Assembly (NCBI GenBank): GCA_905235695.1 | Contig: CAJOMW010000001.1 | Coordinates: forward strand, 959-48,188 | Source of the DNA: an uncultured Clostridia bacterium | GTDB taxonomy: Bacteria; Bacillota; Clostridia; Oscillospirales; CAG-382 | DNA: 47,230 bases | Direction of reading: 5' to 3' | Shown here: positions 1-8,481 of the stretch, in pieces | How positions within the stretch are numbered: the first letter of the stretch is position 1 | How the letters are laid out: each line of letters opens with the position of its first letter | Notes under the pieces: generated by a model | What the model saw: the letters and a program-made list of their open reading frames with translations, nothing else | The model's database searches: none | What the model was told of the DNA's origin: nothing | Program-made: the position numbers and the translations under genes

Positions 1-2
1 AT

Positions 3-40
3 GAATGACGAATAATTGAATAATACAAAACAAAAAATCC
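3..40. repeat. Degenerate heptamer array (GAATGAC GAATAAT TGAATAAT) followed by ACAAAAC and AAAAAATCC; mirror image of the GGATTTTTT-linker-array arrangement seen elsewhere; cut by the window edge
   Basis: Read directly from the sequence. Three 7-8 nt units sharing GAATRAY lie next to an A-run/ATCC half-hairpin. Confidence 0.4.
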
Positions 41-100
41 TATCTTTCTACAGGACTCAAGTGTCTTGCAAAACTCATTATACCCACAAAAATAGTTGGG

Positions 101-152
101 TGAGGTTATCAACTGCAATACTTCATGTGGAAATTTTTAGCTTTTGCAACAG
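101..152 (-). repeat. Conserved 52-nt box, copy A (reverse orientation relative to copy B at 5663-5715)
   Basis: The reverse complement, CTGTTGCAAAAGCTAAAAATTTCCACATGAAGTATTGCAGTTGATAACCTCA, differs from 5663-5715 by 2 substitutions and 1 single-nt indel. Confidence 0.9.
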
Positions 153-206
153 TCTGACGTTTGCATATTATATAACTATGTAAACCAACTCTGAAATTTA
201 TTTAAT

Positions 207-227
207 AAAAAATCCGAAGGATTTTTT
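207..227. terminator. Perfect 9-bp hairpin AAAAAATCC-GAA-GGATTTTTT with an A-run on one side and a T-run on the other; likely bidirectional intrinsic terminator serving the minus-strand gene 266-955
   Basis: Stem, loop and U-tract are read directly. The hairpin lies 39 nt downstream of the stop codon of the minus-strand CDS. Confidence 0.65.
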
Positions 228-230
228 CCT

Positions 231-265
231 TAACTCCTCACTCCTAACTCCTCACTCCTAACTCA
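231..265. repeat. Tandem heptamer array, 5 units (TAACTCC TCACTCC TAACTCC TCACTCC TAACTCA)
   Basis: Direct reading. The array abuts the stop codon (266-268) of the minus-strand CDS. Its outer 17 nt (247-263, ACTCCTCACTCCTAACT) are identical to 5924-5940. Confidence 0.95.
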
Positions 266-955
266 TCAAACGTCTCCCTCCAAAAACTTCACCGCTCTCT
301 CGACCGAGTCCTTCGCATTGCCCCACGGCTCGCTGTCGTAGCGGTAGTCAAACTTTTTGCAGAACCAGGAGACGTCCTCTTTAAGCGACTGCATATAGGC
401 GCTCTGCACTTTGTCGAGAGCTTCGATAAAGAGGGGGTACGTTTTCTTGTCGAGGCGGACCTTTGCCTTTTCGATAAAGAGCGAGGCGTGCGGCAGGCAG
501 AAATAAGGCTGAGCGGAGAGAAGGTCTCGGAATGAGCGCTCCTTTTCCCAGAGAAGCACGGCGGTCAGCACCATTTTGGAGTATTTTTCGTCGACTCTCT
601 CGCATATATAACAGCTCGAATTGAGCTTCTTCATCTCCGAAGCTGCCTTTTGGCTGTTGTCCTTGCCGAAGACCGACCTTTTGCAAATCGCTACCTTGTC
701 GGAGAGCTCTCCGAGATGGCTCTCGAGCATGAGCGCAAGGCTGAGACGGTTGTTCATTTCGAGCATCTTGTCGTAGTGCCTTCGGCAGAAGCCGAGCTCG
801 TTTGTCTTTATCCGGATGTCCGGCTCCATCATTGACGCACCCATTATGAGATCGCGCTCAGTATCCTCAAGCTCGCGCCTGAGACGGCAGAACGGGCAGC
901 CGTCCTTCTTCTCAAACGCCTGCGTCACGGGTATTGTATATATCTTCTCTTCCAT
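266..955 (-). CDS. Cys-rich conserved hypothetical protein with two tandem CxxC...CxxH modules; resembles clostridial DUF6062-type proteins
   Basis: 229-aa ORF. It carries C20PFC..C57RRH and C115YIC..C153LPH with near-identical spacing (37 and 38 residues). The family name is from memory and was not verified. Confidence 0.7.
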   Translation of the reverse strand: MEEKIYTIPVTQAFEKKDGCPFCRLRRELEDTERDLIMGASMMEPDIRIKTNELGFCRRHYDKMLEMNNRLSLALMLESHLGELSDKVAICKRSVFGKDNSQKAASEMKKLNSSCYICERVDEKYSKMVLTAVLLWEKERSFRDLLSAQPYFCLPHASLFIEKAKVRLDKKTYPLFIEALDKVQSAYMQSLKEDVSWFCKKFDYRYDSEPWGNAKDSVERAVKFLEGDV

Positions 956-4581: not shown

Positions 4582-5532
4582 ATGGCAAAAAAACTCGGAG
4601 GGCTTGGCAAAGGCCTTGACGCACTTTTTATAGAGACGGGCAGCGATGAAAAAACGATAGGGAATATTTCTTCGGATATAGCGAAGGTCAGGATATCGGA
4701 CGTTGAGCCGGACAGGCTTCAGCCCCGTAAGAATTTCGACGAGGAATCGCTGAACACCCTTGCCGAATCCATATCGCTTCACGGCGTTCTTCAGCCGATA
4801 GTCGTGAGAAGTGCGGCGAGGGATACGGACGACGAGGAGACAAAAAAGCTGCTCGAAGGAAAGTACAGAATAGTATCGGGCGAGCGCAGGTGGCGCGCCT
4901 CAAAGATAGCAGGACTGACCGAGATACCGGTAGTCATAAAGGAGCTCACCGACAGCGAGGCGGAAGCGATAATGCTCGTCGAAAACCTCCAGAGAGAGGA
5001 TCTGAACCCGGTCGAGACCGCAAGGGGACTGAAAAGGCTCGTCGACGAATACGGACTCACGCACGAAGAGACGTCTAAGATAGTCGGCATTTCACGCCCC
5101 AATCTGACAAATTCACTCCGGCTTCTCTCGCTCCCTCAGAATGTGCTCGATTTTCTCGAAAGCGGCGATATCAGCGCCGGTCATGCAAGAGCGCTTCTGC
5201 CGCTCGAAAATGAGGACAAAATAAATGAGGCACTCGACATAGTGCTCGCAAAGAACTATTCGGTGCGCGATACGGAGAGACTTGTAAAAGGGCTTCTCGG
5301 TCAGAGCGAAAAGGCTCAGGAAAAGAAGACGTTCAAGGACATAGAAAAGCAGATATATCTCGAAAAGCTCGAAGAGAAGATTTCCTCAAAGCTCGGCAGA
5401 AAAGCGGCGATAGTGGGAAACAAGGGCAAAAAGGACGGCGGACGGCTTGAGATAGAGTATTACGGAAGCGAGGATCTCGAGACGCTGCTCAGAGAAATCT
5501 GCGGTTCCGATATTTTCAGCGAAAAAAACTGA
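4582..5532 (+). CDS. parB: ParB/Spo0J-family partition protein
   Basis: The ORF track begins at 4504. The ATG at 4582 gives the canonical MAKKLGGLGKGLDALF start with a purine-rich SD. The GERRWRA box and the HTH LTHEETSKIVGISRPNLTNSLRLL are present. Confidence 0.9.
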   Translation: MAKKLGGLGKGLDALFIETGSDEKTIGNISSDIAKVRISDVEPDRLQPRKNFDEESLNTLAESISLHGVLQPIVVRSAARDTDDEETKKLLEGKYRIVSGERRWRASKIAGLTEIPVVIKELTDSEAEAIMLVENLQREDLNPVETARGLKRLVDEYGLTHEETSKIVGISRPNLTNSLRLLSLPQNVLDFLESGDISAGHARALLPLENEDKINEALDIVLAKNYSVRDTERLVKGLLGQSEKAQEKKTFKDIEKQIYLEKLEEKISSKLGRKAAIVGNKGKKDGGRLEIEYYGSEDLETLLREICGSDIFSEKN

Positions 5533-5550
5533 ATTAGTGAGGATAATAAA

Positions 5551-5585
5551 AGTTAGGAGTGAGGAGTGAGGAGTGAGGAGTTGAT
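5551..5585. repeat. Tandem heptamer array (AGTTAGG AGTGAGG AGTGAGG AGTGAGG AGTTGAT), reverse complement of the TAACTCC/TCACTCC arrays
   Basis: Direct reading. An extra isolated AGTGAGG unit sits at 5536-5542. Confidence 0.95.
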
Positions 5586-5588
5586 GTA

Positions 5589-5609
5589 GATTTTTGCGTT
5601 GCAAAAATC
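5589..5609. other. Perfect 9-bp hairpin GATTTTTGC-GTT-GCAAAAATC
   Basis: Direct reading. There is no U-tract after it on the plus strand. Confidence 0.8.
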
Positions 5610-5662
5610 CGAAAAAATTAGTTATTTATCGCATTTCTTGACGATTCCAAAATTTTTTCAGG

Positions 5663-5715
5663 CTGTTGCAAAAGCAAAAAATTTCCAACATGGAGTATTG
5701 CAGTTGATAACCTCA
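5663..5715 (+). repeat. Conserved 53-nt box, copy B
   Basis: CTGTTGCAAAAGCAAAAAATTTCCAACATGGAGTATTGCAGTTGATAACCTCA matches the reverse complement of 101-152. It lies 53 nt from hairpin 5589-5609, and copy A lies 54 nt from its hairpin. Confidence 0.9.
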
Positions 5716-5736
5716 TTCGAGCGGCACCCCATACGG

Positions 5737-5785
5737 AGCCAACCATTGGCTTCCCCTTGAGGGGAAGCTGTCAGCGTAAGCTGAC
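5737..5785 (+). other. Three consecutive hairpins (AGCCAA-CCA-TTGGCT; TTCCCC-TTGA-GGGGAA; GTCAGC-GTAA-GCTGAC); candidate structured RNA or REP-like module
   Basis: Stems are read directly. The third loop is a GNRA tetraloop. The strand is assumed from the neighbouring genes. Confidence 0.35.
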
Positions 5786-5827
5786 TGATGAGGTGAAACA
5801 ATTAAAAATTGTTAGATTTTTCCCTTA

Positions 5828-5855
5828 ATTGCGAATTGCGCATTGCGAATTGCGC
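5828..5855. repeat. Perfect tandem duplication of the 14-mer ATTGCGAATTGCGC (can also be read as 7/8-nt AATTGCG(C) units)
   Basis: Direct reading. Confidence 0.95.
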
Positions 5856-5859
5856 ATTA

Positions 5860-5880
5860 AAAAAATCCAAAGGATTTTTT
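5860..5880. terminator. Perfect 9-bp hairpin AAAAAATCC-AAA-GGATTTTTT; same module as 207-227 with a different loop
   Basis: Direct reading. A-run and T-run flanks give a bidirectional terminator-like form. Confidence 0.6.
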
Positions 5881-5886
5881 GTACCT

Positions 5887-5942
5887 TAACTCCTCACTCC
5901 TAACTCCTAACTCCTAACTTCTAACTCCTCACTCCTAACTGA
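5887..5942. repeat. Tandem heptamer array, 8 units (TAACTCC TCACTCC TAACTCC TAACTCC TAACTTC TAACTCC TCACTCC TAACTGA)
   Basis: Direct reading. It ends 17 nt before the ATG at 5959. Confidence 0.95.
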
Positions 5943-5958
5943 ATTTTTGGGTGGTATT

Positions 5959-6690
5959 ATGAGCATAAACACGATAGAACTTATAGTATGGTCACTTTTT
6001 GCGGCGATAACGGTTGCGGTGCTGTATGCGTTTTTCATGCAGAAATCCGTGTCGGGTCTTGCTAAAAAGCTGATAGACAGCTCGGCTTTGTCAAAAGACT
6101 GCGCAAAGACGCTGAGCGAACTCGGATACAAGGACGGTATAGCCTCGAAGGTCACCGCATTTTTTGCCGCCGGCGGCTCGTATCTCGCGCGCTGTATAGT
6201 AAAGGTCGGCAGAAACGATAAAAACGATAAAAACACGGGCGAAAGTGATTTGCTCTTTGTAAAAAAAGAGCCGCTGAAGTACTATATCCCCGAAGAAAAA
6301 GTCGACAAAGTATTCAATAAGCATCTGAACGACAAGATGTCGCCTAAATACCTCATCCTGTCCATCGCCGTGCTTCTCATCCTTGCGCTTGTCGCAGGAA
6401 CGGTTATAAATTTCCTCATGTCTACCGCGTCAAACGCATTCAGCGGAATAGGAAACGCCCCCGTCGGCACGGCATCCGAGAGCGATTCACTGCTCGACGA
6501 GCAGGAAAAGCTCACAGAAGAAGAGGAGACAGCAAAGGAAGCGGAAGCCGAAGGCGCAGAAGAATCGGAAGGCGAAAGCGCAGAAAAGCCTGACGAAAAT
6601 ACGGATGAAAATTCGCCCGGCGGCGCACAGGAGACGACCGCAAATGAAGAGACAGGCGACAGCTCCGCAGAAACCGACGCCGCTCAGTAA
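5959..6690 (+). CDS. Hypothetical membrane protein with two TM segments and a long acidic, low-complexity C-terminal tail
   Basis: The ORF track starts at TTG 5947. The ATG at 5959 follows GGGTGG. There are hydrophobic segments near the N-terminus and around residue 140. The tail is rich in E, T and A. Confidence 0.6.
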   Translation: MSINTIELIVWSLFAAITVAVLYAFFMQKSVSGLAKKLIDSSALSKDCAKTLSELGYKDGIASKVTAFFAAGGSYLARCIVKVGRNDKNDKNTGESDLLFVKKEPLKYYIPEEKVDKVFNKHLNDKMSPKYLILSIAVLLILALVAGTVINFLMSTASNAFSGIGNAPVGTASESDSLLDEQEKLTEEEETAKEAEAEGAEESEGESAEKPDENTDENSPGGAQETTANEETGDSSAETDAAQ

Positions 6691-7635: not shown

Positions 7636-8413
7636 CGGTGAAAAGTGTCTGCTGGAAGGGATAATATCCGTAAAAGCGGCGGTATCGTCCGGAAAGCGAA
7701 AGATAGAAAAAGTATACGTTGATGCGGAAAAGAAGAGCAAGCGTGACCGCAAGATAATACAGCTGCTCTCGTTTCTGAAGGAGACGGGAACGCCGTTTGA
7801 GGTGTCGGCGCGGGAGAATATCGACGAGATAGCTTCGGCTTATCCCGATTTCGGTCACTCTCACGGCGGAGTTATAGCAATAGCGTCTGAGCGTGTATTC
7901 GATGACCTTGAAGGAATGCTTAGGAGCGCAAAAGACGGGGAATACATAGTTTTCCTCGACGGCGTTGAGGACCCGTACAACTTCGGCTATTCGATAAGGA
8001 CGCTGTTCGCCTTTGGCGTGCGGAATTTTATAGTCCCCTATCGCAACTGGATGAGCTCGGCAAACGTAGTTGCACGCTCGTCCGCCGGTGCGAGCGAGAT
8101 GTGCGGCATTGCCGCCGCTCTCGAAGACGACAGGGAGACGGCTCGGCTGATAAAGGATAGCGGACTTGACATAGTATGCTCGGCGGTGGCGGCAAACTCG
8201 GTGTCGGTGTATGACTTTAAGAGCGACAGGCCGTATGTTCTGATAATAGGCGGCGAAAAGCGGGGAATATCAAGGGACTTTATGGACGAAGCGGACAAGA
8301 TCGTCCACATACCGTACAGAAACGATGATGCGAGGTACTCTCTGCCGACCGCATCGGTGTGTGCGGTGTACGGAGCGGTTTTGGCGAAAAATCCGAAGGA
8401 TTTTTCGCAGTGA
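7628..8413 (+). CDS. TrmH/SpoU-family RNA 2'-O-methyltransferase (RlmB-like)
   Basis: 261 aa with an 8-nt overlap with the upstream gene. SpoU-type motifs LDGVEDPYNFG, LIIGGEKRGIS and IPYRNDDARYSLPTASV are present. The last 9 codons are encoded by the repeat hairpin at 8384-8408. Confidence 0.8.
   Translation: MADGEKCLLEGIISVKAAVSSGKRKIEKVYVDAEKKSKRDRKIIQLLSFLKETGTPFEVSARENIDEIASAYPDFGHSHGGVIAIASERVFDDLEGMLRSAKDGEYIVFLDGVEDPYNFGYSIRTLFAFGVRNFIVPYRNWMSSANVVARSSAGASEMCGIAAALEDDRETARLIKDSGLDIVCSAVAANSVSVYDFKSDRPYVLIIGGEKRGISRDFMDEADKIVHIPYRNDDARYSLPTASVCAVYGAVLAKNPKDFSQ
8384..8408. repeat. Perfect 11-bp hairpin GCGAAAAATCC-GAA-GGATTTTTCGC; third copy of the AAAATCC-GAA-GGATTTT module, followed by degenerate heptamers AGTGAAG AATGAAG AGAGAAG (8409-8429)
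   Basis: Direct reading. It lies inside the 3' end of the TrmH-family CDS. Confidence 0.85.
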
Positions 8414-8481
8414 AGAATGAAGAGAGAAGAGAGCATAGAAAATGTACAAAAAACAGTGGTTTTTTTTGAGAGATAAGATTG

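Follow-up and report, generated by a model that had tools for sequence, protein, structure and literature searches.

The stretch of DNA analysed here, referred to as the window, comprises 47,230 nt of an uncultured Clostridia bacterium (Oscillospirales; contig CAJOMW010000001.1 of GenBank assembly GCA_905235695.1, positions 959 to 48,188). Its first part carries, in this order, genes for a DUF6062 protein (266-955, minus strand), OGG, a hypothetical protein, SpoVAC (minus strand), MBOAT, ParB (4582-5532), a membrane protein (5959-6690), a MORN protein and a SpoU/TrmH methyltransferase; the remainder is ordinary chromosome with genes for glycosyltransferases, a V-type ATPase and glycosidases. 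The spacers that follow the DUF6062 and parB genes harbor tandem arrays of heptanucleotides next to short hairpins. This work deals with these arrays and with the larger non-coding element to which they belong and which occurs in two diverged copies, A and B. Its parts are the following, the arrays being delineated by Tandem Repeats Finder (TRF):

1..268, minus strand: copy A of the element, cut by the window start, recognized by its alignment with 5520-5960 and located 3' of the DUF6062 gene
5551..5940, plus strand: copy B, 390 nt long and complete, situated in the spacer from the parB stop codon (5530-5532) to the start codon of the following gene (5959), with inverted heptamer arrays at both ends
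101..157, minus strand: conserved 57-nt core of copy A, matched to 5658-5715 at 89-93% by the inverted-repeat pairs I2 and I5
5658..5715, plus strand: conserved 57-nt core of copy B, ~90% identical to 101-157
231..268, minus strand (TMACTCC on the plus strand): (GGAGTKA)x5 array, 5.1 units, 95% matches as a 14-mer
5551..5582, plus strand: (GGAGTGA)x4 array, 4.4 units, 95% matches, 18 nt past the parB stop codon
5827..5858, plus strand: (AATTGCG/CATTGCG)x4.6 array, 100% matches as a 14-mer, abutting the hairpin at 5860-5881 and missing from copy A
5887..5940, minus strand (TAACTCC on the plus strand): (GGAGTKA)x7.7 array, TRF score 87, inverted-repeat pairs I1, I4 and I7
207..227, unstranded: A/T-rich palindromic hairpin AAAAAATCC-GAA-GGATTTTTT, fold -5.9 kcal/mol
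5589..5609, unstranded: hairpin GATTTTTGC-GTT-GCAAAAATC, unlike the AAAATCCNNNGGATTTT motif, fold -8.2 kcal/mol, z -3.4
5860..5881, unstranded: hairpin AAAAAAATCC-AAA-GGATTTTTT, fold -6.5 kcal/mol
5748..5799, plus strand: nested double-hairpin module GCTTCCCC-TTGA-GGGGAAGC, GTCAGC-GTAA-GCTGAC, TGATGAGG, fold -27.6 kcal/mol, z -5.7
1..40, minus strand: degenerate distal end of copy A with a relic arm GGATTTTTTGT and ATTATTC-like units, homologous by position to 5871-5900 and truncated where the window begins

The two copies are related over their length: the reverse complement of 1-300 aligns full-length with 5520-5960 at 70% column identity, and the order GGAGTKA array, hairpin, A/T-rich stretch, 57-nt core, variable part and AGGATTTTTTGT is common to both. 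The AATTGCG array and the double-hairpin module are extra modules of copy B only. The arms of copy B (5547-5588 and 5882-5923) constitute a 42-nt inverted repeat, 88% complementary with 293 nt between the arms, as is characteristic of the terminal repeats of miniature inverted-repeat transposable elements (MITEs). Array 5887-5940, which ends 18 nt ahead of the 5959 start codon, pairs with 5551-5582 in inverted orientation; the G-rich strand of both end arrays reads inward. With the two arrays as closing stem, a 401-nt stretch folds at -152.3 kcal/mol compared to -86.6 +/- 5.4 kcal/mol for shuffled sequences (z about -12.1).

The four solid arrays, each of which adjoins a short A/T-rich hairpin, are all intergenic, that is located between called open reading frames (ORFs), and confined to two spacers, neither of them beyond the initial 6 kb of the 47 kb. 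When lags of 4-15 were scanned, period 7 alone gave arrays, and these were exactly the same four. At least 12 of 14 lag-7 matches were reached by six 21-nt segments against 0.1 expected in first-order random sequences; the sixth of them starts at 8411 in a purine-only run (8411-8433, 12/14 matches) and is a marginal array. Head-to-tail 7-nt units beyond chance, an intergenic location and unit numbers that vary from strain to strain, the hallmarks of heptanucleotide long simple sequence repeats (LSSR) and of short tandemly repeated repetitive (STRR) sequences, are all found here. Upon translation, the GGAGTGA and GGAGTTA arrays carry a stop codon in all three frames; none is present in any frame of the TCACTCC or AATTGCG arrays. 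An assembly artefact was rejected on the grounds that the arrays are present in five independent assemblies as well as in complete isolate genomes. Clustered regularly interspaced short palindromic repeats (CRISPR) and coding repeats were also dismissed, as the units are contiguous without spacers and the arrays lie outside ORFs.

A sequence-only reading of the window had listed six separate instances of a hairpin followed by a heptamer array, with a unit differing by locus. Three of them are borne out by TRF and folding (arrays 231-268, 5887-5940 and 5551-5581 with the hairpins 207-227, 5860-5881 and 5589-5609). For another, the array 5827-5858 is real, but the 'GATTTTT' at 5814, regarded as its hairpin arm, is unpaired in the folds. 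The array proposed at 3-40 is not significant (16 of 31 lag-7 positions match); this segment is the homologue of the position of array 5887-5940 and its hairpin, cut by the window start. At the last site the hairpin (8386-8406) is strong, but the array is marginal (12/14 lag-7 matches) and order and polarity are unlike those of the others. The instances are not separate either. Four of them (the three confirmed ones and 3-40) are pieces of two homologous element copies and of the element's own inverted repeat, and three of the four solid arrays share GGAGTKA as direct or inverted copies within one family, which is what the sequence-only reading had itself named as evidence against its proposal.

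Four other assemblies of the same species (L001, L002, L347 and L348; 98.9-99.9% identical) all contain the element, and its orientation is identical in the four. On the parB side, the array counts 4 units both in the window and in L001 but 3 in L348, and L347 exhibits T/G swaps at the variable unit position in both arrays, including one swap in 231-268, so that the comparison of array length between strains that had been recommended does reveal differences. Hairpins and flanks are identical or almost so in the alignments with L347 and L348. Since a one-unit indel and T/G swaps confined to the variable position occur between ~99% identical strains, the comparison points to slippage and unit turnover as the probable source of these differences. 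In L348 (ERZ27234816, 2130-2176) an A7-to-A6 frameshift six bases ahead of the parB stop codon leads to 10 extra codons and then to a TAG inside the array, resulting in a product of 326 aa instead of 316 aa. Every short-read contig of the species that reaches the element stops in or at a heptamer array: L001 and L348 end in or at the element at both ends, L002 ends in an array and L347 in the parB-side array. Evidently, either the arrays or the element exist in several copies or assemblers are unable to resolve them, and the contig ends suggest further copies elsewhere in the genome. A practical effect is that the arrays fragment short-read assemblies of gut Clostridia.

The orthologous loci of five relatives (L123-L127; ParB 72-74% identical) have fully kept the gene order of the window. 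In these, the parB stop codon is separated from the next start by 21-42 nt compared to 426 nt in the window, and deletion of 5551-5940 in silico leaves a parB spacer of 36 nt. The spacer between the Rex and DUF6062 genes has 41-66 nt in the relatives and 265 nt in L125 alone. None of the 9-17 kb loci of the five relatives contains an array of period 5-11. Copy A starts at the DUF6062 stop codon with the junction TGA TGA GTTAGGAG, and the DUF6062 protein has 229 aa in the window and in two of three relatives and 231 aa in the third. Filled and empty orthologous sites, another MITE trait, are therefore found, albeit in comparison with relatives that are only 72-74% identical in ParB. Because the relatives' spacers are short and free of arrays and the length of DUF6062 is conserved, both copies look like lineage-specific block insertions immediately after stop codons.

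The interior of the element resembles no established RNA family. A search of the whole window against Rfam 15 yielded zero matches at the gathering threshold, and a permissive search of 5500-5980 gave chance-level matches only, e.g. Cyano-1 with 16.5 bits compared to a gathering threshold of 41. A resemblance to a hammerhead ribozyme (Hammerhead_3, CUGAUGAG...GAAAC) was discarded as stem II is absent and the score of 15.6 bits is far from the gathering threshold of 48.5. The 57-nt core string AGTATTGCAGTTGATAACCTCA had 0 matches in the metagenome scan, and a BLAST search of phages and plasmids with the element revealed no full-length relative, the matches being limited to Nostoc plasmids for the AATTGCG array and to gut contigs for the double-hairpin module. 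Promoter-like sites are not present within 5540-5960. Copy A has two of them on opposite strands, TTGCAA-16-TATTAT (143-171, plus strand) and TTCAGA-17-TATAAT (195-167, minus strand), with none at the matching place in copy B.

The double-hairpin module recurs directly after gene stops in human-gut contigs (L128, 1501-1650; L129-L131; L100). There it has the form GGCTTCCCC-N4-GGGGAAGC, TGTCAsC-loop-GsTGAC, TGATGAGG with compensatory stem changes and mostly GNRA loops, and often occurs as an inverted pair closed by GATGAGGGG and CCCCTCATC. Rfam has no match for it, and it may represent a small dispersed repeat or a structured RNA that has yet to be described. The record MT838152.1 (L128) and its sibling records MT836571, MT838470 and MT839574 are labelled 'UNVERIFIED: Bacteriophage sp.' (human faeces) and resemble bacterial chromosome; the ORF of L128 that ends at the double-hairpin match has, read by eye, what we take to be a purD-like 3' end.

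The arrays are by no means limited to this species. An exact scan for (GGAGTKA)x3.5 in one genome per GTDB species returned at least 120 stretches, about 0.01 being expected by chance for such a 25-mer. Among the matches listed, about half stem from Nostocales and other cyanobacteria; the others listed include Planctomycetota, Bacteroidota, Campylobacterota, Gamma- and Betaproteobacteria, Acidobacteriota, Chloroflexota, Gemmatimonadota and Actinomycetota, and ten listed contigs belong to Firmicutes, including Ruminococcus bromii, Agathobacter, Dialister and Acutalibacteraceae. The complete isolate genomes in this list include those of Nostoc NIES-4103, Halomonas olivaria, Luteimonas R10 and Stieleria. 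Only 11 of 162 GGAGT-type arrays of other genomes lie inside an ORF. Nostoc plasmids contain matches to the AATTGCG array at 90-94% identity, and on pNPUN02 of N. punctiforme (AATTGCG)x4.7 is situated between convergent genes.

Outside the cyanobacteria the listed GGAGTKA arrays have a polarity. An inverted partner within 400 nt is found downstream of 21 of 61 of them and upstream of none. Solo arrays share their strand with the upstream gene in 40 cases versus 17, and in 30 of these 40 the array lies no more than 30 nt from the stop codon. In the direction of GGAG, structure is more pronounced in the 48 nt after the array than in the 48 nt ahead of it (mean z -1.26 vs -0.22, p = 8e-4; z < -2 in 33% vs 7%). 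A perfect hairpin of at least 6 bp within 80 nt occurs downstream of 32 and upstream of 18 of 70 listed non-cyanobacterial arrays; a hairpin with a T-run follows 7 of the 70. The listed cyanobacterial arrays are without a difference in flank structure and without strand preference, and their partner rule is weak (6 of 59 downstream, 0 upstream). The usual layout elsewhere is gene stop, array, small hairpin or hairpins and inverted array, the interior varying by genome and most partners being 15-120 nt apart. Other heptamers such as GGAATTA, GTAGTGA and CTCCCTA are found nearby in such loci, many of them one base off GGAGTKA, which agrees with the earlier claim that units vary.

Several loci show particular arrangements. 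Three tandem ~27-nt units (GGTGGCGTGCCTCCRCTGTCAATTTGC) stand right after a GGAGTKA array in a metagenome-assembled genome of Acutalibacteraceae (L078, 4106-4190), the 8-kb contig of which contains five arrays; four of these directly adjoin a stop codon in sense. In L044, L052 and L072 the array is followed by a module TGGTGGTGCGCCGC-(loop CAAATTnnAAA)-GCGGCGCGAGTTTTGAAAT, which is ~85% conserved between contigs assigned by binning to Ruminococcus bromii and Agathobacter and has a looser form in a Dialister-binned contig; this sharing suggests horizontal spread or mis-binning. A metagenome contig fetched for the hairpin (L248, 9207-9645) has an inward-facing pair of TCAGTTA and TAACTGA arrays ~400 nt apart.

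That period 7 is special, as had been proposed, is corroborated by 686 kb of array-unbiased metagenome contigs with 12 arrays of this period and 4, 6, 4, 5, 0, 1 and 1 arrays of periods 5, 6, 8, 9, 10, 11 and 12, respectively. This excess is in agreement with that of heptamers described by Mrazek et al. 2007, as far as reported in PMC4679880 and PMC4692102. The proposal that a mechanism or selection acts on periodicity and not on sequence is not supported. In viral contigs GGAGTKA formed 48 stretches, GAGGTKA 21, AAGGTKG 11, GGAATGK 5 and MATTGCG 5, and GGAGTKA is thus 4-10 times commoner than the two composition-matched control units AAGGTKG and GGAATGK (48 vs 11 and 5). GAGGTKA and GGTGAKA had been dropped as controls, being mutual rotations at K = G that both contain GAGG. 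Any unit is able to form arrays and units containing GGAG or GAGG are favoured; the fixed polarity of GGAGTKA towards stop codons and partners outside the cyanobacteria likewise speaks for the sequence of the unit.

We consider it on balance probable that the window contains two diverged copies of a non-coding, modular, palindromic element of ~390 nt that were inserted after stop codons and are mainly selfish or near-neutral, with insulation as a side-effect and without being a dedicated regulator. As seen between the strains, the arrays change by slippage during replication, through which whole units are added or lost and unit variants replace one another. The element might spread or be exchanged by way of its arrays, these acting either as terminal inverted repeats or as homology that moves with it. 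It would be tolerated at the 3' ends of genes since the inward G-rich strand has TGA or TAG in all frames and closes entering frames within a few codons. The hairpins together with the stem between the arrays would keep a structured transcript end.

Several points weigh against this explanation. A target-site duplication is not apparent for copy B, which is flanked by AATAAA ahead of AGTTAGGAG and by GAATTT after CTCCTAACT, and the same applies to copy A. The copies are only ~70% identical and mosaic, which does not speak for recent transposition. No transposase or recombinase was found among the 10 larger ORFs of the window that were scanned. In-situ growth instead of insertion is possible, given that the relatives with empty sites have only 72-74% ParB identity, and the two sites examined are both inside the 47 kb window of this genome. 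The proximity of arrays to stop codons is partly built into the statistic, because any ORF running into an array ends there. Finally, the recurrence of one unit across phyla and its polarity hint at a function that this explanation leaves open. There is a limited chance that (GGAGTKA)n is a pan-bacterial, sequence-specific module following stop codons, with three-frame stops and anti-Shine-Dalgarno complementarity, that either acts on terminating ribosomes or on transcript 3' ends or is the terminal repeat of undescribed, array-bounded miniature mobile elements that cross phyla with interchangeable hairpin cassettes. The rules suggested for GGAGTKA in many phyla outside the cyanobacteria are a start at the stop codon, the G-rich strand in sense and partners facing inward around hairpins. 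If they hold, they lead to testable hypotheses, i.e. interaction with ribosomes or with the anti-Shine-Dalgarno sequence, insulation of transcript ends or a new miniature mobile element.

A related idea, in our opinion rather unlikely, is that of an RNA element in the 3' untranslated region. Its sense (GGAGUKA)n would offer a Shine-Dalgarno-like run of GGAG to the anti-Shine-Dalgarno sequence of 16S rRNA or to a protein such as CsrA, S1 or Csp and would thereby retain or recycle ribosomes, keep exonucleases off or modulate how the gene behind it is translated; gene 5959 would have its ribosome-binding site covered by the complementary CUCCU array ahead of it. The fixed polarity of the listed non-cyanobacterial solo arrays, with the G-rich strand in sense after the stop codon (40 vs 17, 30/40 within 30 nt), fits well, as does the fact that units with GGAG and GAGG were the commonest tested in viral contigs (48 and 21 vs 5-11 stretches). 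A universal anti-Shine-Dalgarno sequence would also explain recurrence across phyla, and similar binders have been put forward for TAACTGA repeats (PMC4679880). On the other hand, other units such as AATTGCG are not Shine-Dalgarno-like, the symmetry of the element implies that polarity stems from its structure rather than from the gene, and the absence of arrays from relatives with the same genes means that these genes do not need them. Furthermore, arrays also occur in Bacteroidota and cyanobacteria, where Shine-Dalgarno sequences are used only weakly. Along the lines of the sequence-only reading, T-run hairpins, taken as terminators, might instead locally promote period-7 arrays through a mechanism or selection to which periodicity and position matter and the sequence of the unit does not. 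This would agree with the preponderance of period 7 over each neighbouring period in array-unbiased contigs, with the existence of many units, with the more frequent perfect hairpins downstream of the listed arrays (32/70 vs 18/70) and with the single hairpin bordered by both the AATTGCG and the TAACTCC array in the window. It is nevertheless a quite unlikely explanation. A metagenome scan for AAAAATCCRAAGGATTTTT returned at least 120 stretches from unrelated contigs, and none of the 122 occurrences listed has a period-7 array within 60 nt, meaning that the hairpin by itself neither predicts nor seeds arrays; the instances in the window are copies of one block-inserted element; specific units recur across phyla and exceed composition-matched controls; and T-run hairpins follow only 7 of 70 listed arrays elsewhere.

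The connection to intrinsic terminators does not stand up either: T-runs are present, but the A/T-rich stems contain 2-3 G-C pairs and reach -5.9 to -8.2 kcal/mol, which falls short of an intrinsic terminator, and a consensus terminator scan calls none of the hairpins. A bidirectional transcription stop might still be assembled from a G-rich array that causes R-loops or pausing, weak U-run hairpins and a subsequent C-rich, G-free array serving as a Rho utilization site. In fact, the TMACTCC strand has no G and about 50% C, the hairpins bear A- and T-runs on both sides, arrays are found at gene ends and between convergent genes, and the architecture is symmetric with an equal order of parts from either direction. 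We regard such a module as improbable, as the weak hairpins (-6 to -8 kcal/mol) are missed by the terminator scan, parB and the next gene of the relatives, 21-42 nt apart, are probably co-transcribed, such that an inserted terminator would harm, 5540-5960 has no promoter-like site and T-run hairpins accompany only 10% of the listed arrays elsewhere. Very improbable, finally, is an invertible or phase-variable switch, in which the 42-nt inverted arrays flip the 293-nt interior or array length toggles the downstream membrane-protein gene. While arms that are 88% complementary around ~300 nt, a comparable spacing of ~290 nt in L052 and unit numbers that differ between strains would suit a switch, all four covering assemblies show one orientation, the element (copy B, 5540-5960) has no promoter-like site, no invertase is encoded by the 10 ORFs scanned and most partner arrays elsewhere, at 15-120 nt, are too close for a promoter cassette.

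The hairpin motif AAAATCCNNNGGATTTT occurs three times in the window (209, 5862 and 8388) compared to 0.28 expected occurrences, and among the other loci fetched the exact hairpin is present only in L001 from the same species. Its third copy stands apart from the element:

8386..8433, plus strand: isolated third hairpin copy (8386-8406) and purine-only period-7 run (8411-8433), fold -14.6 kcal/mol, z -4.95

The hairpin, a perfect 11-bp stem (GCGAAAAATCC-GAA-GGATTTTTCGC), falls within the final nine codons of the SpoU/TrmH methyltransferase gene, and the purine-only run comes after its stop codon. The relatives have unrelated C-termini, which suggests that a small palindrome may have been inserted into the 3' end of the gene, giving the protein a new tail. 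The segment 8386-8433 is an uncertain member of the element family.

The element shares a number of traits with MITEs and with REPINs (PMC3116915), which are small, palindromic and non-autonomous pieces of mobile DNA. It is smaller than 600 nt, non-coding and extragenic, has terminal inverted repeats, lies, as these often do, at the 3' ends of genes, appears in multiple copies that break assemblies and shows filled and empty sites between relatives. It differs by the lack of a target-site duplication and of a cognate transposase or REP-associated tyrosine transposase among the 10 ORFs scanned. Its termini are microsatellite arrays of variable length instead of fixed sequences, and its copies are mosaic and ~70% identical.

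Among repeats of the same period, TAACTGA is known from marine Beggiatoaceae, cyanobacteria and Bacteroidetes with no known route of transfer (MacGregor 2015, PMC4679880), and S1, Csp or CsrA have been proposed to bind it (PMC4679880). As in our case, one heptamer occurs in distant phyla, a stop-bearing unit closes three sense frames and the arrays are intergenic at gene boundaries; TCAGTTA and GGAGTTA even have AGTTA in common. In contrast, TAACTGA arrays mostly lie just upstream of starts, in forward orientation and with 2-6 units (PMC4679880), whereas the arrays of the window follow stops and form inward-facing inverted pairs around hairpins. The GGGAATC repeats of Xanthomonas, some of them arranged as convergent inverted pairs and differing from strain to strain (Rehm et al. 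2015, PMC4692102), and GGGGAYT of Nostoc are likewise intergenic G-rich heptamers of variable array length, some convergent pairs of which are able to form stem-loops. Their runs of three to four G fold as G-quadruplexes (PMC4692102); GGAGTKA has runs of GG only.

Closest are the heptamer arrays known since 1990 from cyanobacteria and since 2007 from other bacteria, for which there is no accepted function or origin. The STRR sequences, described as three tandem heptanucleotides in Calothrix PCC 7601 (Mazel et al. 1990, as cited in PMC4692102), are intergenic heptamer arrays with several units per genome and without known function. The comparison with STRR, which the sequence-only reading had drawn as an analogy, turns out to be closer than that, as GGAGTKA and AATTGCG both form arrays in Nostocales, specifically in genomes and plasmids of Nostoc, Calothrix and Rivularia. 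The units of classical STRR1-3, CCCCAGT, TTGGTCA and CAACAGT, are not those of the window. A further difference is the host, a spore-forming Clostridial lineage with four arrays per 47 kb in two spacers and inside a larger inserted element. In most genomes surveyed, heptanucleotides are the most abundant class of long simple sequence repeats and polymerase slippage has been proposed as their origin (Mrazek 2007, according to PMC4679880 and PMC4692102); the genomes rich in them, as summarized in the same two articles, were those of Burkholderia, cyanobacteria, actinobacteria and Xanthomonas. Intergenic tandem 7-nt units, a surplus of heptamers over neighbouring periods, slippage as the proposed cause and a scattered phylogeny all agree with the arrays described here. 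The unit GGAGTKA, the occurrence in Clostridia and the polarity following stop codons were not encountered in the accessible portion of the LSSR literature. In the literature searched, neither GGAGTTA, GGAGTGA, TAACTCC or TCACTCC as a bacterial repeat unit nor such heptamer arrays in Firmicutes were found. The arrays of the window thus belong to the heptanucleotide microsatellites of LSSR/STRR type, here embedded in a composite element that resembles a MITE, and are not the product of a new hairpin-driven process. They add to this known class a Firmicutes example with the unit GGAGTKA that comes with clean empty sites, slippage by one unit between strains and the natural closing of a shifted reading frame.

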